Source of the DNA: a virus
Taxonomy: Duplodnaviria > Heunggongvirae > Uroviricota > Caudoviricetes
Direction: 5' to 3' (one strand)
Length of the DNA: 64,000 nucleotides
Virus record (IMG/VR): IMGVR_UViG_3300044796_000394
The first letter of the stretch is position 1. Each line of letters begins with the position of its first letter. This document shows, piece after piece, positions 3,589 through 43,547 of this stretch. The position numbers and the translations under genes are program-made. Below the pieces are notes generated by a model, which had not been told where the DNA came from, ran no database searches, and saw only the letters and a program-made list of their open reading frames with translations.

Positions 3589-4635
3589 ATGGTTATGGGA
3601 GCGCCTGTGAACAAATTGCCTTACCTGTCGTTTTGCTCGGATCGCCGTTTCGGCATCGAGCTGGAGATTAACGCCTACGACGGGAAAAATCGTCCCGACC
3701 AAGGCCAAAAGGTCGCCGGGATTGACGACGTAGCTATGGTGGTTGCTGCCAGTAGCACGGAGGCGGTCGAAATTCGTGAGTGGGAACACACCCACAACAA
3801 TGAAGTCTGGGTACTGAAACCCGACTCGTCTTGCGGCATGGAAGTTTGTACGCCCATCTACAAAGGGTGGCCGGGACTTCGCAAGGTCGTTCAAGTCGTG
3901 GAAGCCTTCAACAAATACCCCAAAGTTAAGGTCGATAATCGCTGTTCGGTACACGTCCACGTTGAAGTGGCCGATCTTACCACCGAACAAATCGGCAGCA
4001 TTATCGCCCACTGGTTTAAAGTGGAACCCGTGTTTATGGACTCTGTGCCGCCTCACCGCAAGCGGAACCGGTATTGCCAATACATGGGCTTCAACAACCT
4101 CGTACAGACGGAAACCAAGCTCAACGCTGCCGATCTGATGAAGAAAGTGGGGAATGTTAAGTATTATTCCCTCAACACCAACCAGATGATGAAAAACGGT
4201 CGCAAAACCGTTGAATTCCGCATCGTGGAAGGTGACGGCTGCAAAGACCCGTTCCTCATCAAGAATTGGACTCGCCTCCTGCTCCAATTCATTGAAATGG
4301 CAGCACGCCGTCCGCTACCTCCTGAATATGAAGAAGGTAATCCGTGGTCGTCGCTCTGCTGGTTGGAACCTTCGGACACATTCAAATTGCTCGGCTTTGA
4401 TCCGAGTGAGTACGAATTGTCTCCCGGTCTCCAACAGACCCGCAACTGGTTCTTGGCTCGCCTTCAAAAGAACATGTCTCCGGACATTGGCGAAGGTTTC
4501 CGTCAATACGCCTACGAAAACCTACAGAAGATGCTGGCCGATTACAAAGAAATGGGTGTTGTTATTTGTCCCGAAAAGCACTTGTCGCCTACGGACTTGA
4601 AAGAAGCATTATACAAAGAAGAGTTAAGGGTATAA
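3589..4635 (+). CDS. Amidoligase_2-family (GS/GCS2-like COOH-NH2 ligase) enzyme
   Basis: N-terminal GIELEIN (E-x-E) and CSVHVHVEV (H-x-H) motifs typical of the phage amidoligase family. GGAG ribosome-binding site. Confidence 0.65.
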   Translation: MVMGAPVNKLPYLSFCSDRRFGIELEINAYDGKNRPDQGQKVAGIDDVAMVVAASSTEAVEIREWEHTHNNEVWVLKPDSSCGMEVCTPIYKGWPGLRKVVQVVEAFNKYPKVKVDNRCSVHVHVEVADLTTEQIGSIIAHWFKVEPVFMDSVPPHRKRNRYCQYMGFNNLVQTETKLNAADLMKKVGNVKYYSLNTNQMMKNGRKTVEFRIVEGDGCKDPFLIKNWTRLLLQFIEMAARRPLPPEYEEGNPWSSLCWLEPSDTFKLLGFDPSEYELSPGLQQTRNWFLARLQKNMSPDIGEGFRQYAYENLQKMLADYKEMGVVICPEKHLSPTDLKEALYKEELRV

Positions 4636-9761: not shown

Positions 9762-10025
9762 ATGAGTAAGCACATAGGACGCAAGGAACGATGGGTTAAT
9801 GGGGGCAACTGCCACACGACCTTTAATGGATACATCCAAAGGAATTATCGTGGTTGGTGGAATGGATACGCAGTTTATCAAAAGAGGATGAAAAAGAATT
9901 CCACCCTTGTTAAACAATATGACATGGTCGGTGAGTTCAAGCGACCGGAACAAGCCAAGATGGTTGTTGAAGATCGTTTGAAGTTGCTGAGAGCCACTAT
10001 CAAGCCAACCATGATTCTTTTCTAG
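9762..10025 (+). CDS. hypothetical protein
   Basis: 87-aa ORF. Confidence 0.4.
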   Translation: MSKHIGRKERWVNGGNCHTTFNGYIQRNYRGWWNGYAVYQKRMKKNSTLVKQYDMVGEFKRPEQAKMVVEDRLKLLRATIKPTMILF

Positions 10026-10026
10026 G

Positions 10027-10263
10027 ATGAATGTAATGAAGGAACTACCTCTCAAAGATGTTGCTTCTTTTGTTCTATCAGACCTAGAAGTAGTACAAAG
10101 AGAATTGGATAAGCTGCGTAGTTTTATCAAAGAAGCAGGAGCTTATGAATTTCCAAAAGATTCCCCGGAAATAATGTCCTACAGGGCAAATTTGTCCGGG
10201 CTTTTGGAGACTTCGCACGCAATTAAAGGTCTTCATCAAATTCTTTTCAAAGGGAACAGATGA
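10027..10263 (+). CDS. hypothetical protein
   Basis: 78-aa ORF. Confidence 0.4.
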   Translation: MNVMKELPLKDVASFVLSDLEVVQRELDKLRSFIKEAGAYEFPKDSPEIMSYRANLSGLLETSHAIKGLHQILFKGNR

Positions 10264-24068: not shown

Positions 24069-27000
24069 TTAGCCCGGTGATGAGACGTTCGTAATAATAC
24101 CACCAACAACTTCAACAAGCATTCCATCGCCTGATTGGAATGATCCTGTATATCCTTGAACCCCACCAATTGAAAAGTAATTTGTAGCATTGAACCACGC
24201 AGCGTTAATAATTCCAGAGGCATTAACCGCAGGGGCAATGAGATCAATAGCAGGATCTTCGCCAGTAGTTCTACATAAAACTTGGGCATCAACAGTACCC
24301 ACAACTACCGAATTATCGATATTAGATGTGATGCCGAATCCGAAAGCATATTGATTTTCAGATATGTCAGCACCTTCAATGAATGTCGGAGCAAATACAT
24401 TGTTCGCCAAGGTTCCACTCAAACTTCTATTACCAGCAGCACCATAAACAGCTTGTGCCAAAGTACCAGAAGGGCCGACATTTGATTCAAGGAAAACAAT
24501 AAAATGGGAACTGTAATTGGTGGTAATTTCATTATAGAAATTTTGAGAAGTAAACATAGCACTATAACCACCATCATTAAAGATGGTGATGGGGATATTT
24601 CCACCAGACACACTTGAATTATCATCAAATTCAAAGGTGTAGACATTGCCATTGGTGTCAGTTAGCACAATAGTATCACCATCTACTACTGTTTGTGAAC
24701 CAAAATTGAAAGATGCTGCTCCTTGAGCTGGTTCGTGTCCAACTGTATTATCGTTGCCAATAGTCAAATTATTATTAGTGTCTGGTCCAACAAGGAAATC
24801 ACCGTCACTTAATAAAGTATGATCCACAACAGTGCCCATTGCGTCAACCGTAGTGACCATTGGGGCAAAGCCGCTTTCATCATCCCTCAGCCAAAAGAAC
24901 ATCTTGTGAACATCCCCTTCAACAATAGAAGGGGGAGCAGCTGCGTGTGTACCTAATGGACCAGATATTTCAAGTTGTCCATCAACGCCAAGATTCAATA
25001 AGGTTTGATGATTATCCCAAGTAGTTGCTTCTTCACCAGCATCGACACCTTGAATTTGAAGCCCATTGTATCCGGCAGTACCTTGGAATCCTAATTTGAA
25101 TGCGGCATTACTCTTATTGTCAATTTCATCATTATCTGGATTGACATTATAGCCCCAAACCAACTCGCTGTTTTCTTTTTGAATTAACCAACCGCTTTCT
25201 AGTGGTGTACTTTCGTGAAGGGTATTGTTAATTGTAATGCCTGGCGAAACATTGATGTGGGTTGCGTGTAAGTTCAGAGTATTAGTATCGCCCAAAGCTT
25301 CAATGTAGTTTGCGTCAACCCCAAATCTGGAAGAGTTATCAACACTGACAGTTAAGCCTTTACCAAACGCAGTCATATAAGTTCCAATATCCGATCCGTC
25401 ATGGAACTGAGTTTCAAATATTGTTCCAGCTAAAGTGCCAACAACTTCCGTGTTTCCACTTTCCCCTTGATAGACTTGCGTTAGAAGATTGCCACCAATA
25501 TCCACATTGAATACAGCATCTTGACTTTGGTAATTGTGGGCGTTTAAGAAAGCGAATTTTGTATTTGCGGCACTATAAGTTCCGGCAATGGCAACCTGAA
25601 TACCATCGGTATGCGTTCCTACATTGGTGAAGTAGAAATTATAAACGTTTCCAGAAGTTGCCGTGAAGCCAATGGTGTCACCTTCTGTGATGGTGCCACC
25701 GATACCGAAGTCGCAAGATGCCGTCGCCCCGTTATCAACATCACCATTGGTGAATGCTGACGGGAAGAAGCCACCGTTCAAATTTCCAGTAAAAGCCGTG
25801 TTGCCTGCCGTGCCGTTGGCTTGGGTAAACAATATGGTCGTTGGTCCAGTCTGAGTAGCAGTGATTTCAAAACCGGGACCGGCTTGAAACATTTCAAAAA
25901 AGTTTGTAGTAGTGTTGTTCGCATCGTAACCGGTCGTTCCAATACGAACAATAATAGAGCCGTCAATAGAACGAACACCATTTGTGAATTCATAATTGTT
26001 AGATAGCTCAACCGCCCCGGCTTGGAAAGTGACATAATCACCATTGGAAATTGATCCAGCAGTGAAATCAAAGTTAAGAATCGCACTTGCCGCACTTCTG
26101 TTGGTGCTGTTGTTAAACCCTATAGCAACTAGATTATTTGGACCGTTAAGATTGTTGCCGCCACCCATTTGAATGCTGGCTGATTGGACGATGAAATTGT
26201 TTGTGGTTGACATGTAAAGATCAACTCCGCCCTCACCAGACGCAATGAAGGTTGTATTGTCTTCATTGTTCAATCCAATATATGCACTGTCAAAGTGTAA
26301 AGTTCCACCAACTTCAATGAGGGAATTGTTACCATTGAATGTTAAGTTGACATCATCAATACCTATTTTTAGGGTATTTTCTACTTGGTTATCTTGACCA
26401 GTTCCAATAGAATAAATGTTAACTAGTGGATTGAGACCGCCTGAAAAAGATGATGATCCAAAGTAATCACTACTGATTGAAGTATTGCCATCTGTGCCTG
26501 TAAAATTTTGCGTTAATTGAACAATGCTACCATCAACACCATAGCCTAATGGAACATTACCTTCGCTGAGAGCATCAAGAAAATTATTTGCTTGTGCTGA
26601 AGAACTTCCAGCAATCGTTACTGGAATATTGCCTTCTGTTACCGACATATCGTCATCAAACTCAAGAGTATAAGTGGTAGTAGCACCTGCCGCCTTGAGA
26701 ACTTCGATAGTTACCGTTTGTCCATTCGTAGGAATACTCGTAAATGTTAGTGTTGCTTGTGCTGGAGTGCCGTCGCTGCCGGTTGTATTATTATCACCGA
26801 AAACAAATGTGTTCCGTCCATTAACGGTATTATCGCCAATGTCAACACGACTTGCTTTCAATTGCATGGTATTGAAAGACGCCTCCGTTGTATCAAAATA
26901 CAATAGACCATAAGTGTTGCCTTGGTCGTCTTCTTCCGAACTTAATTCAACTTCACAATAACTATTTATGATTTCGGCATCACCGCCAATAGCTTGAACT

Positions 27001-28532
27001 GAAATCGTGCTACCGTTGCCATAAACTTGTGCGTAATTATTTGGATCATCATCTTGACCCAAGAAAAGACGACCTTCAGTAACATACAAATTGCCGTTAT
27101 CCATAGTGAATTTTTCGGCATTGTTATCAATTTTTAGACATGTATCATGAGCACCAATTGTAATTGTTTTGTTATTGACATTTAATCCGAAACCAAAACC
27201 GAATGCATTATTCGGATCATCCGTACCACCCTGAAATACCGTTCCAAAAATACAGTCAGTGCATGAAAAATTACCTTCAATATTCGTATTTCCAAAAGCA
27301 CCTTCAACATTTTGAGCAACAGAGCCAGTTGTGCCATCTTCATTAATGTTTACTGTAAACGGACTATTGGCTTCAACGGCGATCTTAAAGTTCGTAACGG
27401 TTTCGGCAAGAGTCCCACCGATTGTTACACCATATGTTCCTCCTGTAATGCTTTCATTATTATCAAATTCAAAGACATATTGTTCACCATTGGTATCTTG
27501 AAAACTGACGCCATAACCATCTACTACGCTTTGACGACTAAAATCAAACTCTGCCGAAGCAGGCGCAAGTGCATCACTGAAATGATTGTTGTTTCCAATC
27601 AACATAATATTGGTATAAGTGTCACCGATGACATTAACATCCTCGCCTCCGTTGAGATTGTTAATGTTGATAGCATCGAGAATATCGCCGCCGTTCATAT
27701 TTAGAACACCAGCAGGGTCTTCGTCTGCCCCTTTCATGATCAAGGCACTAATATTGTGAAGATAACTAACTCCGGCCCCGCCACACGATTCTACACCACC
27801 AACAAATGCTATGCCCGGCGTATAAATTCCCGATCCAAATTGGAATGTTTCTTGATCGGAATTAAAACTGACTATGGACTCTTCACCCGCACCAAAAACA
27901 AGTGTGGGTGTTTGAACTAGATCAAAAGCCACTTGATCGGTCGTATTCAAACTTTGATCAAATGAGTCCCCACCACCGCCTCCACCTGTTGCTGCCCATG
28001 AAGTTGTCGTGCCGTTAGTAGTCAAGAACTGTCCACTGTGTCCGGTTTGTGTTGGAAAAATACCGGCAGCATCACCCGTAATATTCAAATGATGAACATC
28101 TAGTGTTCCTGTATAAGTCCCATTGTTGCCACTTAAAGTATCAGCCATCAATTGGCCATCCACACCGGCATTATTGCTGACAACGAGATTGTTAAACGTG
28201 ACGTCATCGGTTGTATTCAAATCCTGATCAAACGAACTGCCACCACCACTAATGGTTTTGAATATGATTGTTTCACTTTCAGAATCATATGCCAAAACTC
28301 TATTGTTTGCTTTATTGGACGTATCAACGTTAATACCGTCAATGGTATTATCATCTACGGTTTTGAATTCTATCGCTTGCGTATCAGCGTTATAGAATAA
28401 GACTTTTCCGTCACCCTTGTTTGTAACATCAATCTTTATCCCTTTGATAAAATTTGCATCCGTTCTATTGGTGGATGCAAACTTAAGAGTTATAAATGGA
28501 ACATAGGCGCCGTTGAGAAAATACATTGTCAT
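24069..28532 (-). CDS. large tail-fibre-like structural protein (1487 aa)
   Basis: Asn/Gly/Thr-rich beta-structure composition. Repeated SFDQ[DS]LNTTD and Y[VT]FEFDDN..GG.IP.TI blocks. Confidence 0.65.
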   Translation of the reverse strand: MTMYFLNGAYVPFITLKFASTNRTDANFIKGIKIDVTNKGDGKVLFYNADTQAIEFKTVDDNTIDGINVDTSNKANNRVLAYDSESETIIFKTISGGGSSFDQDLNTTDDVTFNNLVVSNNAGVDGQLMADTLSGNNGTYTGTLDVHHLNITGDAAGIFPTQTGHSGQFLTTNGTTTSWAATGGGGGGDSFDQSLNTTDQVAFDLVQTPTLVFGAGEESIVSFNSDQETFQFGSGIYTPGIAFVGGVESCGGAGVSYLHNISALIMKGADEDPAGVLNMNGGDILDAININNLNGGEDVNVIGDTYTNIMLIGNNNHFSDALAPASAEFDFSRQSVVDGYGVSFQDTNGEQYVFEFDNNESITGGTYGVTIGGTLAETVTNFKIAVEANSPFTVNINEDGTTGSVAQNVEGAFGNTNIEGNFSCTDCIFGTVFQGGTDDPNNAFGFGFGLNVNNKTITIGAHDTCLKIDNNAEKFTMDNGNLYVTEGRLFLGQDDDPNNYAQVYGNGSTISVQAIGGDAEIINSYCEVELSSEEDDQGNTYGLLYFDTTEASFNTMQLKASRVDIGDNTVNGRNTFVFGDNNTTGSDGTPAQATLTFTSIPTNGQTVTIEVLKAAGATTTYTLEFDDDMSVTEGNIPVTIAGSSSAQANNFLDALSEGNVPLGYGVDGSIVQLTQNFTGTDGNTSISSDYFGSSSFSGGLNPLVNIYSIGTGQDNQVENTLKIGIDDVNLTFNGNNSLIEVGGTLHFDSAYIGLNNEDNTTFIASGEGGVDLYMSTTNNFIVQSASIQMGGGNNLNGPNNLVAIGFNNSTNRSAASAILNFDFTAGSISNGDYVTFQAGAVELSNNYEFTNGVRSIDGSIIVRIGTTGYDANNTTTNFFEMFQAGPGFEITATQTGPTTILFTQANGTAGNTAFTGNLNGGFFPSAFTNGDVDNGATASCDFGIGGTITEGDTIGFTATSGNVYNFYFTNVGTHTDGIQVAIAGTYSAANTKFAFLNAHNYQSQDAVFNVDIGGNLLTQVYQGESGNTEVVGTLAGTIFETQFHDGSDIGTYMTAFGKGLTVSVDNSSRFGVDANYIEALGDTNTLNLHATHINVSPGITINNTLHESTPLESGWLIQKENSELVWGYNVNPDNDEIDNKSNAAFKLGFQGTAGYNGLQIQGVDAGEEATTWDNHQTLLNLGVDGQLEISGPLGTHAAAPPSIVEGDVHKMFFWLRDDESGFAPMVTTVDAMGTVVDHTLLSDGDFLVGPDTNNNLTIGNDNTVGHEPAQGAASFNFGSQTVVDGDTIVLTDTNGNVYTFEFDDNSSVSGGNIPITIFNDGGYSAMFTSQNFYNEITTNYSSHFIVFLESNVGPSGTLAQAVYGAAGNRSLSGTLANNVFAPTFIEGADISENQYAFGFGITSNIDNSVVVGTVDAQVLCRTTGEDPAIDLIAPAVNASGIINAAWFNATNYFSIGGVQGYTGSFQSGDGMLVEVVGGIITNVSSPG

Positions 28533-29356: not shown

Positions 29357-29408
29357 TTTGAATCTCCAAAGTGTAACTAATTTACATAGATGAATTTATT
29401 TAAGTTTG

Positions 29409-30359
29409 ATGAAGGATAATACGATGATTGATGCGAAAGATATGCAAGAAAAGATGGCTCTCTGGGAAAAAACTGGCCTTCTCAAAGGTCTTTCTGACGA
29501 TAAAAAATTGGCAGTTTCAATTTTGATGGAAAATCAAAGGGTTTTAAATGAAAGCCATGACGATCAATCAGTGAAACGCTTCAATATACCTCTTGTTAGA
29601 AGATGGGTTGGTAATACCGTCTTATTTGATTTAGTGTCAGTCCAAGCATTGACAGAAGCCAATTCTGAAATTTACCATTTTAGCAAAAACACGTTAATAT
29701 CTTCGGAAGTCAAAACGACACCTCGAAAAATGAAAACGTCTTGGAGTCTTGAAGCCACTCAATCATTACGATCATGTAACGGTATTGATGCCGAGATGGA
29801 CTTGTTGAGCATTATAGCAGCAGAACTTACACTAGAAGTTGATCGTTCCGTTATTAGCGAAATGCGAATTAACGCTGCTTTACATAAAAAGATAAACTTT
29901 AAGTATCTGTCAGGAACATATCAAGAAAAAAATGAAATTGTCAAACAGCAAATTTACAATGTCGGCAAAGAATCCAGTGAAATGTATGGTCGCTCTTTCC
30001 CCAATTGGATGATCTGCTCTCCTGAAATGAGAGAATCTGTCGGTAATAATACCAGCAAAAAAACTCGTTCGTGGAATTTGGGGGTTCGGAAAGAAGGGGT
30101 CTTTGAGTTTGAAGATGCCACTATTAATATTTACAGCGATCCCCTTTTCCCTGTTGGTACAGTTCTCCTTGGATACAAAGGTGAACACGTATGCGACTCA
30201 GGTTATGTGTTTGCCCCGCACTTGATGGTTCAGGCATCACCCGTAGTTCTTGATCCTGATGACTTTGTCCCACGACGACAGTTACTCAGCCAATTCAGCG
30301 GCAACCTCATTAATCCCACTTATTATTCCACTTTGGAAGTTAAAGATTTTCTCGCCTAA
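29409..30359 (+). CDS. capsid protein, T4 gp23/gp24 family (compact form)
   Basis: ILMENQRVLNE aligns with T4 IIAKIFENQEK, LGYKGEHVCDSGYVFAPHLMV with VGYKGPNEMDAGIYYAPYVAL, and DPDDFVP with DPKNFQP. Confidence 0.6.
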   Translation: MKDNTMIDAKDMQEKMALWEKTGLLKGLSDDKKLAVSILMENQRVLNESHDDQSVKRFNIPLVRRWVGNTVLFDLVSVQALTEANSEIYHFSKNTLISSEVKTTPRKMKTSWSLEATQSLRSCNGIDAEMDLLSIIAAELTLEVDRSVISEMRINAALHKKINFKYLSGTYQEKNEIVKQQIYNVGKESSEMYGRSFPNWMICSPEMRESVGNNTSKKTRSWNLGVRKEGVFEFEDATINIYSDPLFPVGTVLLGYKGEHVCDSGYVFAPHLMVQASPVVLDPDDFVPRRQLLSQFSGNLINPTYYSTLEVKDFLA

Positions 30360-31144
30360 TGAGATATGAGCAAAAAGATGCGCTAGATAGGTTTTATACC
30401 AACCGTGAAACTGCCTCTCGTTGTGTATCGTTGCTTGATTTAACACAGTATGAATTGATTGTAGAACCATCAGCGGGGGATGGTTCTTTTGTGGATGCTA
30501 TCAAAGTATCCCACTTGATTGCCTTGGACATCAACCCCGGTAGAGAAGATATTCAACAAGCCGATTTTTTTGACTTTACGACATCTATTGATGCTTCCAA
30601 AGTATTAGTCATAGGAAATCCGCCTTTTGGGAAACAAAACAGTCTGGCCTTAAAGTTCATCGCCCACGCTTCCAAGTGGGCGGATACAATTGCCTTCATT
30701 TTACCTTTGTCTTTTATGAAGCCATCGGTTCAAAATAAAATCAATCCGACATTTCATCTTTTTGTTTGTGAAGAGCTTCCGCCAATCAGCTTCTTATTTA
30801 ATGGGGTGCCTTATGATGTGCCTTGCGTATTTCAGATTTGGCGAAAAGGTGAATTGCGAAAACCGCAACGACCAGATACACCCATAGGGTTTGAATATAC
30901 CAATTCCAATTATGGCAACGTTTGTGTGAGACGGGTTGGATATTATGCGGGCAAGGCATCCGATGATATGACGAAAAACAAGGAATCTCATTTTTTCTTG
31001 AAAGTAGACACCAATAAGGTAGACACGGTTATTGCCGGGCTAAATCAACAAGTCTGGAATCATAAAAACACCGTTGGGCCACGAACGGTATCTCGCTTCG
31101 ATCTCAATCCCATTATTAATGGCATTCTCAAAGAAAATTGTTGA
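30359..31144 (+). CDS. small N6-adenine DNA methyltransferase (NPPF)
   Basis: FYTNRETA, EPSAGDGSF (motif I), VIGNPPFG (motif IV). Confidence 0.75.
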   Translation: MRYEQKDALDRFYTNRETASRCVSLLDLTQYELIVEPSAGDGSFVDAIKVSHLIALDINPGREDIQQADFFDFTTSIDASKVLVIGNPPFGKQNSLALKFIAHASKWADTIAFILPLSFMKPSVQNKINPTFHLFVCEELPPISFLFNGVPYDVPCVFQIWRKGELRKPQRPDTPIGFEYTNSNYGNVCVRRVGYYAGKASDDMTKNKESHFFLKVDTNKVDTVIAGLNQQVWNHKNTVGPRTVSRFDLNPIINGILKENC

Positions 31145-31169
31145 CAAGTGATATGGGATAGGTTATAGT
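31141..31169 (+). promoter_or_regulatory. sigma-70-type promoter
   Basis: TTGACA, 17-nt spacer, TATAGT. AGGAG ribosome-binding site 7 nt before the ATG at 31215. Confidence 0.6.
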
Positions 31170-31214
31170 CTTTTGTAATCCGGGTTCTTTCTACCCGGCA
31201 CACAGGAGAATCCC

Positions 31215-32825
31215 ATGAAGGATTGGATTGAGGCCAATGTCGGCAAGCTCATCGCTGCCGGTATTGCCTTTGTACTGTTCGTGATTGTTGGTATCATCAC
31301 TTACAGCAGTGTCCGCATCGACGTTCCGGCAGAACACATTGCCGTTTTGACACGGAATACCGGCGAAGACATCGATAACGGCGATGCGGTGGCACCTGAT
31401 GCCAACCACAAAGGGCTGCAACTCGGTGTGTTAACCGAAGGCCGACACTTTTACAATCCGTATTCGTGGTCGTCCAACGTCTACCCGATGATTACCATCC
31501 CTGACGGCAAGCTCGGCGTTCGCATCCGCCAATACGGGAAGAACCTTCCCTACGGCGACTTCCTTGCCACGCAGGAAGATCAGAAGGGTATCGTGCCCGA
31601 AGTGCTTCGCCCCGGACGCTATCCCATCAATGGCGTGATCAAGGGTGAAGAAGCCAAACGCCCCAAAAACGACTATGTGGAAATCATCGAGCTTTACACG
31701 CCGGTCACCATTCCCGCCGGATACCGTGGGGTGGTTGCCAATCTCGCCGGGCCGCTTCCCGAAAATCCCAACGTGATCCTCGTTCCAAAGGGTTGCCGTG
31801 GCGTTCAAGAGGAAACGCTCGATACGGGAACCTACTACCTGAACCCATACCTTCACCGTGTTAACGTTGTGGATTGCCGCTCGCAACGGTTCAATCTCGC
31901 CGAAACGGTAGACATGGGCTTTCCGAGCCGGGATGGATTTTGGGTGTCCCTCGACGGCATCATCGAGTTCCGTGTCGATCCAGCCAAGGCCGCACATGTA
32001 TTCGTCGTCTACAACGAAACCTCTAACGACAATGTCGCCGACTCCATCATCCACGACGAATTGATCCGCAAGGTCATCATGCCGAACGCCCGCTCATTCT
32101 GCCGACTGAAAGGGTCGGACAAGTCGGGCCGGGACTTCATCGGCGGCGAAACCCGGATTGAATTCCAGAAAGATTTCCAAACGGCAATGGCGAAATCGTG
32201 CCGTCTCGAAGGCGTGGATGTCGTCCAAGCACTGATTACGAAGATTAACCCGCCGCAAGCAATCGCCAAGCCGGTTCGGGATCGAGAAGTCGCCCACCAA
32301 AAGCAACAGCAATACGTGGAGCAGAAAAAGCAGCAAGTGGCCGAAGCGATGCTGGCGACGGAAAAGGCATTGATCGCCCAACGTCAAGCACTGGTCACAA
32401 CGGAAACGACTGTGATACAGAACACGACCACTGCGAAGCAAAACCAGCAGGTGAAAGTCACCGAAGCAAATCGGGACTTGTCGGTTGGCAAGGCCGATCT
32501 CGAAGCAGCGAAGGATAAAGCCTCAGCGGTTCTTGCCGGGAAGAAAGCCGAAGCCGGGGTTATCGACTTCCAAAATCTCGCTGATGCTGCCGGTTGGAAA
32601 ACGGCGGTAGACGCATTGGGAGGCGATGGCGAAGCCTATGCCCGGTTCGTTCTCTACCAGAAGTTAGCACCGGCATTCAAGAAGATGATGGTTAACACTG
32701 GCGATAGCCCACTCATGAAAATCTTTGAGGGCTTCAACAAGGATAACCAAAAACCGGCACCACCGGCAGGCGCACCGAAACCGGTTGCTGCATTGCCGGA
32801 ACCGAAACCGCTCGAAAAGAAATAA
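31215..32825 (+). CDS. SPFH/band-7 (flotillin/YqiK-like) membrane protein 1
   Basis: N-terminal transmembrane segment, SPFH-like core, C-terminal coiled coil (QKQQQYVEQKKQQVAEAMLATEKAL). GC-rich relative to its flanks. Confidence 0.65.
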   Translation: MKDWIEANVGKLIAAGIAFVLFVIVGIITYSSVRIDVPAEHIAVLTRNTGEDIDNGDAVAPDANHKGLQLGVLTEGRHFYNPYSWSSNVYPMITIPDGKLGVRIRQYGKNLPYGDFLATQEDQKGIVPEVLRPGRYPINGVIKGEEAKRPKNDYVEIIELYTPVTIPAGYRGVVANLAGPLPENPNVILVPKGCRGVQEETLDTGTYYLNPYLHRVNVVDCRSQRFNLAETVDMGFPSRDGFWVSLDGIIEFRVDPAKAAHVFVVYNETSNDNVADSIIHDELIRKVIMPNARSFCRLKGSDKSGRDFIGGETRIEFQKDFQTAMAKSCRLEGVDVVQALITKINPPQAIAKPVRDREVAHQKQQQYVEQKKQQVAEAMLATEKALIAQRQALVTTETTVIQNTTTAKQNQQVKVTEANRDLSVGKADLEAAKDKASAVLAGKKAEAGVIDFQNLADAAGWKTAVDALGGDGEAYARFVLYQKLAPAFKKMMVNTGDSPLMKIFEGFNKDNQKPAPPAGAPKPVAALPEPKPLEKK

Positions 32826-32876
32826 CCCTCACCCCACTCTTACTTTCCCCTTAACATTGAAACAGGAGATTGCGTC

Positions 32877-34469
32877 GTGAACTGGAAACTCAAATTCGGC
32901 TTGCTTGGATTGCTCGCCGTGATGGTGATCTATGTCGGCGTGGATTGGCTTTGGAACCGGGTACAAGTTCCAGACGGCCACAGCCTGCAACTGCGATACA
33001 AAGGTCCGATGTTCTTCGGTAAACACAATCAAGCCGAAGCAGGCAATTGGGCCAAAGAAGGCGAAGTCGGCATTTTGGAAAAACTCCGTGGGCCGGGCCG
33101 ACACTTCTACTGCCCGATCTGGTGGGAACGTACGATTGTGCCGGATGTGATCGTCAAGCCGGGTGAAGTCGGCTTGGTGACGTGCAAGTTGGGTGCCTCC
33201 TTGCCAGAAGGCGAATTCCTCGTAGACGGCGAAATCGGGGATACGAAATTCAAGGGAACGCTTCGGAAGGTATTGGGGCCGGGTCGCTACCGGGTTAACC
33301 CTTACGGCTACGAAGTGAAAGTTGTTGGCACCCACACCATTGACTCTGGCAACGCCAAGAAGCAATCTGGTTGGGTTAACATTCCAACAGGATACGTCGG
33401 CGTCGTTTCCAACTTGGCTGACAATCCGATTACTCACCAGAAAACCGGCATTCAAGACAAGGTTCTGCCTCCCGGCCTGTATCCGATGAATCCGGCTGAA
33501 CAACACGTGGACGTTGTGGAAATCGGCTTCCACGAAACCCACATTGACATTACCAGCGGTGGAAAGAACACGCTGGAAATGGCCAAGGCGGATGAAGAAG
33601 GAAATAACCTCGATGCGACATTGACCGGGGGTATTAACTTCCCATCAGCGGACGGGTTCAGCATCACGATGGACTATACGGCAGTGTGGGGGCTGATGCC
33701 AAATCAAGCCCCGAATGCTATCCGCAAGTTCGGCAACGTCGGCCTTGTGGAGCAGAAGGTGGTGTTGCCACAAATCGAATCGATCTGCCGCAACAATGGT
33801 TCCGAATATCCGGCAGTGAAGCTGTTGGTCGGCGAACAGCGAGAAATCTTCCAGAACAAGACTCTGACTGAATTCCAAGCTGTTCTGGCAGCAAAAGACA
33901 TTACCTTACTCTACGGATTGGTACGGCACATCTATATTCCAACAGATGTTCGCCGTCCTATTCAAACGGCATACATTGCCGACGAGTTGAAGCTGACACG
34001 GGAAGTGGAACAGCTAACGGCCAAAAAGGAAGCCGAATTGCGGGAAGCAGAGCGAAAGGTTGAACAGGCAACACTCGAAACCAACGCTCTGACGACGAAG
34101 TTGGTTGCCGAAAAATTGGCAGACGGTGACAAGATAGTTGCCGAAACGGACGCCGAAACCCGGAAGCTGGTTGCCACAATTAACAAGCAAACCGCCGAAT
34201 TGAAGGCGCAAGCGACACTTGTGGCAGGGCAAGCGGAAGGTGAAGGCAAGATGGCTATCGAGACGGCGAAAGCCAGCAAGTTCAAGATGGCTGTGACCGC
34301 CTTTGGAACACCCGCTGCCTACAATAATTGGGTGTTCGCTACCGCTCTGCCCGATGGATTGGAATTGAACCTGTTCTATTCGGGCACCGGAACCCTGTGG
34401 ACGGACTTGAACGGCGGTAAGTTCAACATTAACGTGCCAGCACCGGCAGCAGAAGCTCCGAAGAAGTAA
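32877..34469 (+). CDS. SPFH/band-7 (flotillin-like) membrane protein 2 (paralog)
   Basis: GTG start with an AGGAG ribosome-binding site and an N-terminal transmembrane segment. Shares blocks with gene 1 (GxGRYxVNP, coiled-coil tail). Confidence 0.65.
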   Translation: MNWKLKFGLLGLLAVMVIYVGVDWLWNRVQVPDGHSLQLRYKGPMFFGKHNQAEAGNWAKEGEVGILEKLRGPGRHFYCPIWWERTIVPDVIVKPGEVGLVTCKLGASLPEGEFLVDGEIGDTKFKGTLRKVLGPGRYRVNPYGYEVKVVGTHTIDSGNAKKQSGWVNIPTGYVGVVSNLADNPITHQKTGIQDKVLPPGLYPMNPAEQHVDVVEIGFHETHIDITSGGKNTLEMAKADEEGNNLDATLTGGINFPSADGFSITMDYTAVWGLMPNQAPNAIRKFGNVGLVEQKVVLPQIESICRNNGSEYPAVKLLVGEQREIFQNKTLTEFQAVLAAKDITLLYGLVRHIYIPTDVRRPIQTAYIADELKLTREVEQLTAKKEAELREAERKVEQATLETNALTTKLVAEKLADGDKIVAETDAETRKLVATINKQTAELKAQATLVAGQAEGEGKMAIETAKASKFKMAVTAFGTPAAYNNWVFATALPDGLELNLFYSGTGTLWTDLNGGKFNINVPAPAAEAPKK

Positions 34470-34482
34470 TCCGTGTCATGTT

Positions 34483-34511
34483 GCCGGGGTAGCAATACCC
34501 CGGCGTTTTTT
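34483..34511 (+). terminator. rho-independent terminator
   Basis: gccggggta-gcaa-taccccggc hairpin, then gtttttt. Confidence 0.7.
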
Positions 34512-35000: not shown

Positions 35001-35612
35001 ATGGGCTTCTCCTTCATCATTGATACCGACAAATACGCAGGTAATTTTGAACGAGAAATCTGTGCTTTTGTCACGGGTCGTATCGGTGAAGACGGCGTTG
35101 GTGAAGAAGAAGGCACCCAATACATCAAAGACGGCTACGATCCATTGGAATTTGTTGAGAACCGCTTTGATGAAGATGATCTTGAGGATGATACATATCG
35201 ACCAGTTAATGTTTATCCTACACCGGGATGGTTCAACCACGGACTAGGCAAAGAATTCAAAGACGGGGAAGAGGAAAAGGCTCTCAAAATACTCAAGCAG
35301 GATGCTGCCGATAACTGCAAGAAGCAAAATGATAAAATCAAAAATTATAAGCATTGGCCACTGGAGTCACGGGAACAATCTATCAAGCAAAATACAGAAA
35401 CAATGCTTGCGGTTGTTCAGCGTGAAACCATCATCAAGTACCCCGCCTATCTATCGGTAGCCATTTTTTGCAGCCGTCAACCTACCACAGACGAAATGTT
35501 TTTCATGCAAGAGCGGGCCAGACTCTATGTCAAAGACCGTAATATTAACATCAGTGGTTTCCGTTTACTTGTTGATTCCAAGCCGGAACTTATCAACGAG
35601 AAGGACATGTAG
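35001..35612 (+). CDS. hypothetical acidic protein
   Basis: 203-aa ORF. Confidence 0.45.
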   Translation: MGFSFIIDTDKYAGNFEREICAFVTGRIGEDGVGEEEGTQYIKDGYDPLEFVENRFDEDDLEDDTYRPVNVYPTPGWFNHGLGKEFKDGEEEKALKILKQDAADNCKKQNDKIKNYKHWPLESREQSIKQNTETMLAVVQRETIIKYPAYLSVAIFCSRQPTTDEMFFMQERARLYVKDRNINISGFRLLVDSKPELINEKDM

Positions 35613-36734
35613 ATCGCTACATTGCTGAGGGTGAGCAATTGCGACATTTCGTTTCTCATTTGGGTCGGTATCTAAATTGTACAGTTCACTTGTTTCGGTG
35701 TTGTGTGTGTAGATGTATTTCCACTTTCCTAATCGTACCATATGCTGAGTGCCCACAAAACGGCTTCTATTAGACTTGGCAAAGGCCCAATCTTTCCATT
35801 TCTTGCCTTTCAACAAAGACGTTAAATTTCTACCTTGCCCGAATTTTTCAACACCCAACTTGCGAGCAATTGTTGTTGAAACGTCCAATGATGAACAAAC
35901 ATTGTCTTTGACACCATAATGCTCACCATCTGAGATAATCAATGGCACCTTGATTGCGCCATCGTACAGACAAGGTTTACTCCACAAGCCGTGGTGTCCC
36001 ATCATATTTCCGTGGTCAGACGTATAAATCACTTCGCTATTATTGATTAATCCAGTTGAATGAAGACTGTTCATCAATTCACCAACTCTTTCATCCATCC
36101 ACATAATCATTCCATAATATGATGCCAATACTTTTCTGGATTCTTCTCTGGTGAGTTTGGGTTGATTGACAAATTTGGCAGCACCTTCGTGTGCAGGCCA
36201 CGGGGGGTTTGGAAACTGTATTTGATCCATGAATCGATCAACATATCTTTTTGCTGGAACCGCCAAAGGTGGATGTGGTGCCAAGTAATTCAGCATGGCA
36301 AAAAATGGTTGTTTGGGTGCCCCTTCAAATAAACGACATACATGTCTGGTTGATAGAATGTCATGCTTATGATTTTTATTAACTTCTACATTTTTGGCCT
36401 TTAGGAGTTTTGGTCTATGGTTTCTTTTTTGAGCAAATCTCGGACAAAGAAGATTGAATTTACCTTTGATCGTACTCATTTTGCCGACATAAAAGGAGTG
36501 TATTTCTTGTTGTGATAGTTTATAGGCAAGTGCTGGTTTTTGAGAGTTTGATTGACCGGAGAGAAAGAGTGATCTTGCCGAAGTGCATGAAGGACTGGCA
36601 GCGTAGCAATTGGTTAAGGTTGTTCCATTTTTTGCGAGCAAGTCCAAGTTTGGGGTATGAGCAATTTGATTTCCGGCACAACCCATGAAGTTGTGATTGT
36701 GTCCATCTGACATAATAAGAATAACATTTTTCAT
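35565..36734 (-). CDS. sulfatase / alkaline-phosphatase-superfamily enzyme
   Basis: N-terminal ILIMSDGHNHNF metal-binding start. CTSAR at the position of the C-x-P-x-R formylglycine motif, so the proline is replaced. DHG and H motifs downstream. Confidence 0.65.
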   Translation of the reverse strand: MKNVILIMSDGHNHNFMGCAGNQIAHTPNLDLLAKNGTTLTNCYAASPSCTSARSLFLSGQSNSQKPALAYKLSQQEIHSFYVGKMSTIKGKFNLLCPRFAQKRNHRPKLLKAKNVEVNKNHKHDILSTRHVCRLFEGAPKQPFFAMLNYLAPHPPLAVPAKRYVDRFMDQIQFPNPPWPAHEGAAKFVNQPKLTREESRKVLASYYGMIMWMDERVGELMNSLHSTGLINNSEVIYTSDHGNMMGHHGLWSKPCLYDGAIKVPLIISDGEHYGVKDNVCSSLDVSTTIARKLGVEKFGQGRNLTSLLKGKKWKDWAFAKSNRSRFVGTQHMVRLGKWKYIYTHNTETSELYNLDTDPNEKRNVAIAHPQQCSDLHVLLVDKFRLGINK

Positions 36735-36836
36735 TTTAGATCAAATCCTTACAAGTCGTCGTATTGAGCGTTTTTTATCACACGGAATTATTTATTGACC
36801 CCTCCAACTACTTTATTTTGTTCGTGGAGGATCTCA

Positions 36837-37592
36837 ATGAAAAAATTATTTTTAGGCGTAGTGGCTGCGTTGCTGCTCGTCGGTCCGGCTTTTTCAGCCG
36901 AACCGGAAGTTAAAGTTCCCGTTGCAAAGGCCAAAGTAGCCGATGTGCCGGAACTTAAAGTCCCGACTGAAATGAAAGTTAAACCGGGTCGCCTGTTGCG
37001 AATTCCGGCTGAAACTGCTTGCAAAACCGTTATCTGGTACCTTGATTCCGCTGATGCCGATTTGGTAACTTTTGAATCAACTAAAGAAGCTGTATTTAGC
37101 AGCCCAGTACCCGGCAAATACAAAATTATCGTTTATACCGCTGCTGGTGATGTACCAAGTCAGCCATATGTTTGCGTAGTAACAGTAGAAGGTGATGTGC
37201 CTGTGCCGCCCACACCGCCCACTCCACCCGGCCCTGGTCCCGATCCAATTCCGGTGGATGTATTACTTCAAAATCTAGTTAAAGCGTATCAAGCTGATAC
37301 TACGGCTGATAAGGCTACAAAATTACAAGCACTTGTTACTTTGTGGAAAAGTGCTGCCAAAAACACAGTTAACGATGCCGACATCAAGACCACCGGAAAA
37401 CTTCTTGAAGTTCTCCACAATTCAGCTCAACAACTTTTGGGTAATGACTTAATGGGATTGAGAGAGGCCATCAGAGTTGATTTGGACTCAAAATTGCCGA
37501 AGACCGCAACAGCCGCTCTTGATGATGCTACTCGTAAAGCAATTGCCGTTCACTTTCAAAATGTAGCCGATGCGCTAGGGAAGGTTAAATAA
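36837..37592 (+). CDS. secreted protein with PT-rich linker
   Basis: Signal peptide MKKLFLGVVAALLLVGPAFSA, PVPPTPPTPPGPGPDP linker, GGAGG ribosome-binding site. Confidence 0.6.
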   Translation: MKKLFLGVVAALLLVGPAFSAEPEVKVPVAKAKVADVPELKVPTEMKVKPGRLLRIPAETACKTVIWYLDSADADLVTFESTKEAVFSSPVPGKYKIIVYTAAGDVPSQPYVCVVTVEGDVPVPPTPPTPPGPGPDPIPVDVLLQNLVKAYQADTTADKATKLQALVTLWKSAAKNTVNDADIKTTGKLLEVLHNSAQQLLGNDLMGLREAIRVDLDSKLPKTATAALDDATRKAIAVHFQNVADALGKVK

Positions 37593-42350: not shown

Positions 42351-43547
42351 ATGGCCATTAAAAGCTTGCTGGACAACGACATCTATAAAATTTTCATGCA
42401 ATATGCCGTACTCAAAGAGTTTCCGGGTACGCATGTCCGTATGGCTTTCATGAACCGTCGTAAAACCGATGTTCTCTCAAAATCGCTTTTGAAATCTTTA
42501 AGGGAAGTCGTAAATTCCGTGAAAGGCATGAAAGCCGATTCATGGGAATTGTCACACATCCATAAACACTACCCATTCCTGCCAAATTGGTATATGGATT
42601 GGCTTAGTGAGTTTGCCCCAAATCCCGCCCACGTTAATATAACGGAAAACGGTGAAATTACCGTTGAAGGCCCGTGGGAACAAGCCATGTGGTGGGAAAT
42701 TCCCATCCTCTACACAATCAGCGAATTGTTCTGCGGGGAAATCGATGCTGAAATAGGACACATTCCTCGTAGCGAAATAGTCAAATCCACATTGACCAAA
42801 ATGGAAATTCTGAAAGGTCACTACAGTCGCTATGGCGAGGCAATCGAACACGATCCTTGTCAATACGTTCAATTCGGCTGTCGTCGTCGTCGCTCATACG
42901 ATATTGAGGATGAAGTTGTTCGTACAATGAAAAAGGCCGATCATCCGAATATGCTCGGTATTAGCAACATCCACTTGGCAGCGAAATACGATATTAGGCC
43001 GGTGGGCACAATGGCTCATGAGTTCGTTATGGGTGTCAGTGCATTGAAAAGCCTGCGATATGCCAACCGTGAGGCAATGGAGACATGGCTTCGTGTTTTC
43101 AAGGGCGAATTGGATATTTTCCTGCCCGATACTTTTGGAACGAATGTGTTCCTGAAAGACTACACTCGCCAATTTGCTCAAGCATTCAATGCGACTCGAC
43201 AAGATAGCGGGTCAGCGTATGAATACGGCGAAAAACTCATTAACCATTACAAAACAGTAAAACTTGATCCAAAAACCAAATCGATCACATTCAGTGATGG
43301 GTTAACTGCTACAGAATCAACGAACATCCAGCAACACTTCTACAATCGAATTAAAAGAGCTTACGGCATCGGCACACACTTCACTAACGATTTCATGAAC
43401 AGACCTGCCATGAATATCGTGATGAAGTTAACACATGTCAACGGAATTCCGGTCGTCAAGCTCAGCGACGTTCCCGGCAAAGCCTGTGGCGATCCCAATG
43501 CTCTCAAAGCAGCAAAGTGGGTGTTTCTCGGCGAACCTTTAGTATAA
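42351..43547 (+). CDS. pncB: nicotinate phosphoribosyltransferase
   Basis: LLDNDIYKIFMQYAV and GPWEQAMWWEIPILYTISE align block by block with E. coli PncB, with similar length (398 aa). Confidence 0.85.
   Translation: MAIKSLLDNDIYKIFMQYAVLKEFPGTHVRMAFMNRRKTDVLSKSLLKSLREVVNSVKGMKADSWELSHIHKHYPFLPNWYMDWLSEFAPNPAHVNITENGEITVEGPWEQAMWWEIPILYTISELFCGEIDAEIGHIPRSEIVKSTLTKMEILKGHYSRYGEAIEHDPCQYVQFGCRRRRSYDIEDEVVRTMKKADHPNMLGISNIHLAAKYDIRPVGTMAHEFVMGVSALKSLRYANREAMETWLRVFKGELDIFLPDTFGTNVFLKDYTRQFAQAFNATRQDSGSAYEYGEKLINHYKTVKLDPKTKSITFSDGLTATESTNIQQHFYNRIKRAYGIGTHFTNDFMNRPAMNIVMKLTHVNGIPVVKLSDVPGKACGDPNALKAAKWVFLGEPLV

Follow-up and report, generated by a model that had tools for sequence, protein, structure and literature searches.

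A conserved pair of SPFH membrane-protein genes of bacterial descent forms a self-contained cassette in a huge phage-like genome

We analyzed a 64,000-nucleotide stretch of viral DNA (Caudoviricetes; IMG/VR record IMGVR_UViG_3300044796_000394), hereafter the window, and found in it a compact cassette of two adjacent, co-oriented genes, A and B, that encode paralogous membrane proteins of the SPFH (Band_7) family. The cassette lies between phage genes, carries its own promoter and terminator, and has its closest bacterial relatives in the phylum Planctomycetota. In the reading that we favor and consider probable, it is a moron-type insertion in a huge phage most likely infecting Planctomycetota, where an old, selected, host-derived A/B operon would provide an HflK/C-like ring or cage that supplements the complex of the host. 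The source genome is treated here as that of a huge phage, on the evidence of the window together with a protein database record that places A and B on one Joint Genome Institute (JGI) contig of 614,480 bp.

The cassette has the structure of an autonomous transcription unit, as the initial annotation had proposed, and all of its elements are on the plus strand. A sigma-70-type promoter (TTGACA, a 17-nt spacer, and TATAGT; 31141-31169) agrees with the consensus at 11 of 12 positions and scores highest among the sites of a scanned 10-kb region; in the whole 64-kb window, 6 sites reach at least 11 of 12 positions, compared with 1.9 expected from shuffled sequences. Sequence inspection identified an AGGAG ribosome-binding site (31204-31208) ahead of gene A (31215-32825; ATG start, 536 amino acids [aa]) and another (32864-32868), within the 51-nt intergenic spacer, ahead of gene B (32877-34469; GTG start, 530 aa). 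Both genes were called as open reading frames (ORFs) and matched by Pfam Band_7. Folding of the downstream sequence revealed an intrinsic terminator (34482-34511) with a 10-bp GC-rich stem (34482-34505), a 4-nt loop, and a run of six T residues; its folding energy of -20.6 kcal/mol (z = -4.2) was equaled by none of 200 shuffled sequences. Hairpins resembling terminators are also found 3' of gene B in five of the related loci described below (L003, L004, L006, L009, and L010). On the upstream side, a phage ORF of 261 aa with an NPPF motif and no Pfam match (30359-31144, plus strand) delimits the insertion on its conserved left side, and its TGA stop codon sits within the -35 hexamer of the gene A promoter. 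The cassette thus resembles a moron in having its own promoter and terminator, a composition unlike that of its flanks, and a position between phage genes. It differs from morons in residing in a huge phage-like genome, in comprising a pair of large genes instead of a single small one, and in being ancient and conserved rather than sporadic. A hairpin with a 6-bp stem in the 5' untranslated region (31180-31198, plus strand) is not significant alone (z = -1.6); locus L003 has a hairpin of unrelated sequence (461-479; z = -0.7) at the equivalent position before gene A. Two long ORFs on the minus strand, 31431-32054 and 32829-33542, were rejected as genes, since their seeming conservation mirrors that of the sense strand.

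Both proteins clearly belong to the SPFH family. Pfam PF01145 matched A with 95.2 bits (E = 6e-27) and B with 78.7 bits (E = 7e-22), far above the gathering cutoff of 23.6, and both matched PHROG family phrog_200 (E values of 2e-25 and 4e-14). That A and B are tandem paralogs with an N-terminal transmembrane segment and a long helical tail, as initially annotated, was borne out by their 26% identity over ~490 residues (E = 1e-33) and by structure prediction. Protein A comprises a transmembrane helix at approximately residues 2 to 33, beta-repeat modules at 34 to 94, 95 to 165, and 166 to 228, the Band_7 match at 165 to 374, one long helix (348 to 458), and a Pro/Ala/Lys-rich tail. The layout of B is analogous, with a transmembrane helix at 3 to 26, beta-repeat modules from 28 to 216, the Pfam Band_7 match at 168 to 386, a long helix at 356 to 476, and a disordered tail. 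The AlphaFold model of B, built from 88 sequences, reached a predicted local distance difference test score (pLDDT) of 85 and is beta-rich from residue 28 to ~230, with the SPFH core extending to 353. A first model of A, from 22 sequences, was mediocre (pLDDT 65), and our structural reading is accordingly based on the model of B; the N-terminal transmembrane helix and the single long helix are nevertheless present in both predicted models, and the pair shows the alpha/beta fold of an SPFH domain followed by a long helix. The Gln/Ala-rich coiled-coil tail that had been ascribed to both proteins describes A, whose long helix is Ala/Gln-rich; that of B is rich in Ala, Glu, Thr, and Lys.

Profile-profile comparison identified residues 34 to 94, 95 to 165, and 166 to 228 of A, together with the equivalent segments of B, as three copies of one module (probabilities of 94 to 98%). 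As the third copy corresponds to the usual beginning of an SPFH domain, two modules, or ~130 residues, are additional. All bacterial homologs share these N-terminal repeats. At 82 loci, the net charge before and after the transmembrane helix was +2.3 and +0.6 for A and +1.8 and +0.2 for B, values to which some possibly over-extended ORF starts contribute. This positive-inside bias suggests that the N terminus is cytoplasmic and the bulk of each protein periplasmic.

The assignment of the pair as specifically flotillin-like, made in the initial annotation, was not upheld. Apart from Band_7, no Pfam family matched A or B at an E value of ≤1 except DUF7867 (0.062), so that the Flot domain is lacking at this threshold, and no NCBIfam model, those for HflK/HflC and flotillin included, matched at ≤0.1. 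In a family-profile search of the Protein Data Bank (PDB; E ≤ 0.01), prohibitin-1 was the sole match, with an E value of 3e-4 over ~100 residues of the SPFH core. Among structural matches, prohibitin, HflK/HflC, and erlin ranked best, and flotillin fell below prohibitin, stomatin, HflK/C, and erlin. With flotillins (FloT/YuaG, YqiK, and flotillin-1/2), the pair has in common an SPFH core and an extended helical segment. Bacterial flotillin (SPFH2) operons are accompanied by an NfeD-like partner gene (PMC2636767), whereas the cassette consists of A and B only and the flanking ORFs of the window gave no NfeD match in Pfam. The text of that 2009 classification of SPFH proteins does not allow its groups to be mapped onto the A/B family.

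In being encoded as two side-by-side paralogs and in having just one transmembrane helix, at the N terminus, A and B come closest to HflK/HflC. Like hflK and hflC, A and B are adjacent, co-oriented paralogous SPFH genes whose products have one N-terminal transmembrane segment, an SPFH domain, and a long helix, and the N-in topology with the bulk of the protein outside, tentatively predicted for A and B, may be a further similarity. The differences are nevertheless considerable. HflK and HflC were not retrieved by the PDB profile search, the two beta-repeat modules before the SPFH core have no counterpart in them (A and B measure 530 to 536 aa, compared with 267 and 299 residues in the matched chains of solved HflK and HflC), and A/B lacks a conserved neighboring gene. 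Prohibitin-1/2 and erlin-1/2 likewise consist of two paralogs, but the sequence match is limited to the segment noted above, they have no N-terminal repeats, and they operate in other organisms and membranes. According to their PDB titles, the matched SPFH structures are ring or cage assemblies, and HflK/HflC, prohibitin-1/2 (PHB1/2), and erlin1/2 were each solved as a complex of two paralogs. As general background, the two subunits of these three complexes alternate around the ring.

A further resemblance concerns the major vault protein (MVP), which shows the same order of modules, namely, tandem beta-repeats, an SPFH-like "shoulder," and a long cap helix. Foldseek produced full-length alignments to vault chains, starting from predicted monomer models. 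MVP has nine repeats and is soluble, whereas A and B have only three modules, of which the third is the start of the SPFH domain, and are membrane anchored. Similarity at the sequence level was not detected: the Pfam families Vault and MVP_shoulder did not match A or B at an E value of ≤1, and a sequence profile of the N-terminal repeat region retrieved no PDB chain at ≤10. As the repeat region has no sequence match in the PDB, we regard the vault resemblance as a lead from predicted structure and not as evidence of membership.

SPFH genes in viruses are in themselves not new. Virus-encoded SPFH membrane proteins are annotated (PHROG 200; for example, in Rhizobium phage Pasto, Vibrio phage pVa5, mimivirids, and pandoraviruses), with fold matches in BFVD, and these proteins resemble A and B in being virus-encoded members of the family. 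The viral matches of ~280 to 340 aa, judged by this length, lack the N-terminal repeats of A and B. The statement that a phage-borne pair is unusual was therefore too strong, given these annotations in many phages and giant viruses and the recurrence of the pair on huge phage-like contigs. In the literature, we found no paper on the planctomycete A/B pair or its phage copies, nor a description of a phylum-wide planctomycete A/B family with a triplicated N-terminal module or of huge phages having captured it repeatedly and retained it for long.

Database searches yielded more than 1,300 homologs for each protein, with 56 to 82% identity among the 120 listed, and all homologs with a named source were from Planctomycetota. 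A scan of GTDB, using one genome per species, gave 232 matches, and the best 80 of these all belonged to the same phylum; they included Pirellulaceae, Planctomycetaceae, Thermoguttaceae, Gemmataceae, Phycisphaerales, and Kuenenia. In every bacterial or phage-like locus long enough to show gene order, A is directly followed by B on the same strand. FtsH and NfeD were among the neighbors looked for in 81 bacterial loci, and no gene recurred next to the pair in more than 9 of them, which indicates a bicistron that stands alone. Even the nearest bacterial homologs reach no more than ~70% identity to the pair of the window, whose GC content of 0.537 falls within the range of the bacterial pairs (0.554; standard deviation [SD], 0.041). 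The bacterial, host-lineage origin of the pair is thus well supported, and Planctomycetota is identified as the donor phylum.

The composition of the pair sets it apart from the surrounding DNA. Its GC content contrasts with 0.420 for the remainder of the window; the island described in the initial annotation is hence real, although the 55 to 60% given there is slightly high, as 200-nt local values within the pair range from 0.50 to 0.58. The step is sharp, and the GC-rich segment starts at the ATG of A, so that the promoter and 5' untranslated region lie in AT-rich, phage-type sequence. The GC content at third codon positions (GC3) is 0.64 in A and 0.61 in B, compared with a mean of 0.40 (SD, 0.07) in the 52 other ORFs of the window, and the arginine codons AGA and AGG, which make up 39% of arginine codons in these other ORFs, are absent from the pair. 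When A and B were recoded with the codon usage of the window, their GC content would drop to 0.45, and the excess is consequently due mostly to codon choice and not to amino acid content. In 76 bacterial loci, the pair differed from its flanks by only -0.006 (SD, 0.018), in contrast to +0.118 in the window (z = 6.9). Neither of the two outcomes named in the initial annotation as incompatible with its proposal, a uniform composition on recalculation and matches to phage homologs only, was observed. Locus L003 also shows the excess (pair, 0.523; flank, 0.37). In L004/L005, the pair is partly AT shifted, with a GC content of 0.405 and flanks of 0.30 to 0.32.

A phage can carry a GC island without having acquired it recently, and the comparison with L003 speaks to the age of this one. 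The closest pair lies on L003, a metagenome contig of 4.45 kb; the two pairs are 79 to 82% identical, with amino acid identities of 82% and 81% in the BLASTP alignments. A homolog of the 261-aa upstream ORF (61% identity) directly precedes A in L003, and a homolog of window ORF 36795-37592 (52% identity) follows B. Both promoter hexamers and the 17-nt spacing are identical, although the spacer sequence is unrelated, and the upstream ORF again terminates inside the -35 hexamer. Given the same site and promoter between flanking proteins that are only 52 to 61% identical, the cassette predates the split of the two phages. Between the window and L003 pairs, synonymous divergence (dS) is saturated at 1.8 to 2.3, nonsynonymous divergence (dN) is 0.15, and dN/dS is ~0.07. 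By these sequence measures, the capture is old and the pair is under strong purifying selection. Of the earlier proposal of a recent horizontal acquisition, plausibly from the host, the host-lineage origin is consequently retained and the recent date is not. Divergence between phage and bacterial copies does not exceed that among the bacterial copies, and the distance matrices of A and B correlate (r = 0.91), showing that the two genes travel and evolve together.

The pair recurs on further phage-like contigs of very different size. These are L001, a contig of 107 kb with small unknown ORFs (pair 80% and 77% identical to that of the window); L004/L005 (70% and 69%); L006, a 664-kb scaffold with a homolog of T4 gp13 nearby and a cluster of genes for the salvage of nicotinamide adenine dinucleotide (NAD); L007 (356 kb), which also encodes a class II ribonucleotide reductase with an intein; L010 (527 kb); and L008/L009 (49 to 61 kb). 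L007, L008, L009, and L010 are classified as viral by IMG/VR. In a bootstrapped neighbor-joining tree of concatenated A and B sequences from 82 loci, the window grouped with L003, L001, and L004 with 100% support, and this group joined L006, L007, and the bacterial chromosome L002 in a clade that was also supported by 100%, within which L007 and L002 were sisters (97%). L010 and L008/L009 were placed elsewhere among the bacterial sequences, and monophyly of all phage-like copies received 0% support. The phage copies are thus nested in the diversity of a cellular family at no fewer than three places, and this scatter implies that the pair was captured at least three times or was exchanged in both directions. 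L002, a 7.56-Mb bacterial contig, carries its chromosomal pair (10001-13245) in an ordinary bacterial context but inside the main phage clade, so that it represents either the donor lineage or a return transfer from phage to host. Among INPHARED phages, a protein search gave only 8 distant matches (23 to 26% identity), the best on a 642-kb uncultured phage. This homolog (LR756502.1, 344099-345475; 23% identity) spans residues 37 to 469 of A, including the N-terminal repeat region.

Considering these data, the following course of events may be envisaged for a host-derived A/B operon in a phage of Planctomycetota. Transcription of the cassette by host RNA polymerase is implied by the sigma-70-type promoter. 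A and B would insert into the cytoplasmic membrane of the host via one N-terminal transmembrane helix each, with the bulk probably periplasmic, and may assemble as an alternating ring or cage, by analogy with HflK/HflC, prohibitin-1/2, and erlin-1/2. Because two additional modules separate the membrane anchor from the SPFH core, the wall of such a cage would be taller. The phage would then supplement or replace the host complex during a long infection and keep membrane housekeeping running; candidate roles include the control of an FtsH-type protease, the corralling of membrane proteins, membrane stabilization, and organization of the planctomycete membrane with its invaginations. What the data themselves show is the anatomy of the cassette, its family, its origin in the host phylum, its age, the selection on it, and its recurrence in huge phages; assembly from two kinds of subunit, membrane orientation, the time of expression, and the part played in the host cell are proposals. 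Because the phage copies retain the ancestral rate and the coupling between A and B, we infer the job of the host complex and not a new one. Remodeling of membrane sites and superinfection exclusion, both suggested in the initial annotation, are speculative.

Several points weigh against this interpretation. The assignment of the host derives from the A/B pair itself, and the size of 614 kb is the figure of a database record and was not obtained from sequence read here. Since no NCBIfam model for HflK/HflC or flotillin matched, the functional analogy draws on the fold and the paired genes, and with no conserved neighbor in the bacterial loci, FtsH, NfeD, or another partner cannot be read from the gene context. 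The use of neighbor joining on 82 taxa and the nesting of L002 make the direction and number of transfers tentative. Lastly, GC-rich codons persist in both the window and L003 (501-3784) despite saturated dS. Selection for host-type codons, slow amelioration from a very GC-rich donor, and repeated gene conversion from host copies might each account for this persistence.

The same observations bear on a number of other explanations. Recent, essentially neutral passenger DNA from the current host would account for the bacterial GC content of the pair and for a codon usage sharply unlike that of the phage, but it is very improbable in view of the insertion site and promoter shared with L003 between flanks that are only 52 to 61% identical, the saturated dS and low dN/dS, the distance of at least ~30% from any bacterial homolog, and the fully supported clade of window, L003, L001, and L004. 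That a bacterial fragment was misjoined into a phage contig during assembly, as the abrupt GC step at both gene borders might suggest, is extremely improbable: the order of Gp23, 261-aa ORF, A, and B is the same in two independent assemblies, JGI and Logan, the junctions recur in the diverged L003, and the upstream phage ORF has its stop codon within the promoter. A role in conflict, in which the membrane complex keeps out superinfecting phages or else inhibits or activates a membrane-based defense of the host, fits the classic moron architecture of promoter, terminator, and foreign composition as well as the membrane location of the products. Phage NAD-reconstitution genes are known counter-defense genes, and in L006 and L009, the pair is located just downstream of a NAD-salvage cluster (nicotinate phosphoribosyltransferase [NAPRTase], NAD synthase, and NUDIX), with a NAPRTase gene at 8 kb in the window. 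We nevertheless consider such a role unlikely, as no PADLOC defense model matched significantly (best E value, 0.026), the phage copies evolve at the bacterial rate with A and B coupled, which speaks for retention of the ancestral function and against an arms race, and the bacterial pair is phylum-wide, single-locus, and housekeeping-like, with no defense-island context.

The resemblance to vaults gives rise to two other proposals. A phage-specific, tall, vault-like SPFH cage might serve, in the invaginated membrane of planctomycetes, to organize a site or compartment where the genome is replicated, virions are assembled, or lysis is timed, which would agree with the full-length Foldseek matches, the Gp23-type capsid gene beside the cassette, and the specific recurrence of the pair on very large phage-like contigs. 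We judge it quite improbable, since the repeats occur in all bacterial homologs and hence are no phage innovation, the repeat region has no sequence similarity to MVP, to the Pfam vault families, or to any PDB chain, and the resemblance derives from predicted monomer models only. More broadly, Planctomycetota and huge phages might share an undescribed, membrane-anchored, heteromeric SPFH cage with a wall extended by vault-like repeats, intermediate between HflK/C cages and the eukaryotic vault and captured at least three times to organize or protect the invaginated membrane; this we regard as distinctly unlikely. If the favored interpretation of a host-derived operon that supplements the host complex is true, the pair would be a host marker by which very large phages of one uncultured clade can be tied to Planctomycetota, and its capture at least three times and long retention would point to membrane organization as a limiting resource in huge-phage infections. 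It would also offer an entry to an uncharacterized SPFH family and bear on the relation between SPFH cages and vaults.

Elsewhere, the window encodes a Gp23-type capsid protein (Pfam, E = 2e-30), a large terminase (phrog_2, E = 9e-45), a helicase, DNA methyltransferases, a sulfatase, NAPRTase, and an HldE-like kinase/cytidylyltransferase. No tRNA genes were found in the window, and nucleotide searches of INPHARED phages with the island and with the surrounding 24 kb gave no match. In protein searches, the terminase belonged to a large clade with contigs of up to 669 kb, and the known SPFH-bearing contigs were absent among the top 120 matches; a terminase scan of IMG/VR returned only relatives of 25 to 26% identity, none tied to SPFH-bearing contigs. 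The Gp23-family ORF (29406-30359, plus strand; 317 aa) covers only positions 139 to 354 of the 376-position Pfam model and may be a truncated or accessory paralog and not the main capsid protein.

Additional observations concern neighboring genes. The NAPRTase gene of the window is located at 42351-43547 (plus strand). The NAD-salvage clusters lie within 6 to 9 kb upstream of the pair in L006 (501-1895 and 4672-6738) and L009 (3-410 and 738-2714); both encode NAPRTase and NAD synthase, to which L006 adds the NUDIX gene and a cytidylyltransferase-like gene. Their proximity to the pair may reflect conserved synteny or a functional link. IS605 OrfB/TnpB-type (Cas12f-like) genes are present a few kilobases from the pair in L001 (15372-16478) and L010 (2045-3328, minus strand). 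A 1,487-aa ORF of the window (24069-28532, minus strand) has no Pfam or PHROG match. Two ORFs are of the Amidoligase_2 type, at 3589-4635 and 16003-17367 (both plus strand); the former, with a GC content of 0.51 and a GC3 of 0.61, is the only other gene of the window with a GC3 as high as that of the pair and may be another foreign gene. The sulfatase gene (35565-36734, minus strand; Pfam Sulfatase, E = 3e-33, with SGSH_C), 1.1 kb downstream of the cassette, has a phage-like GC content.

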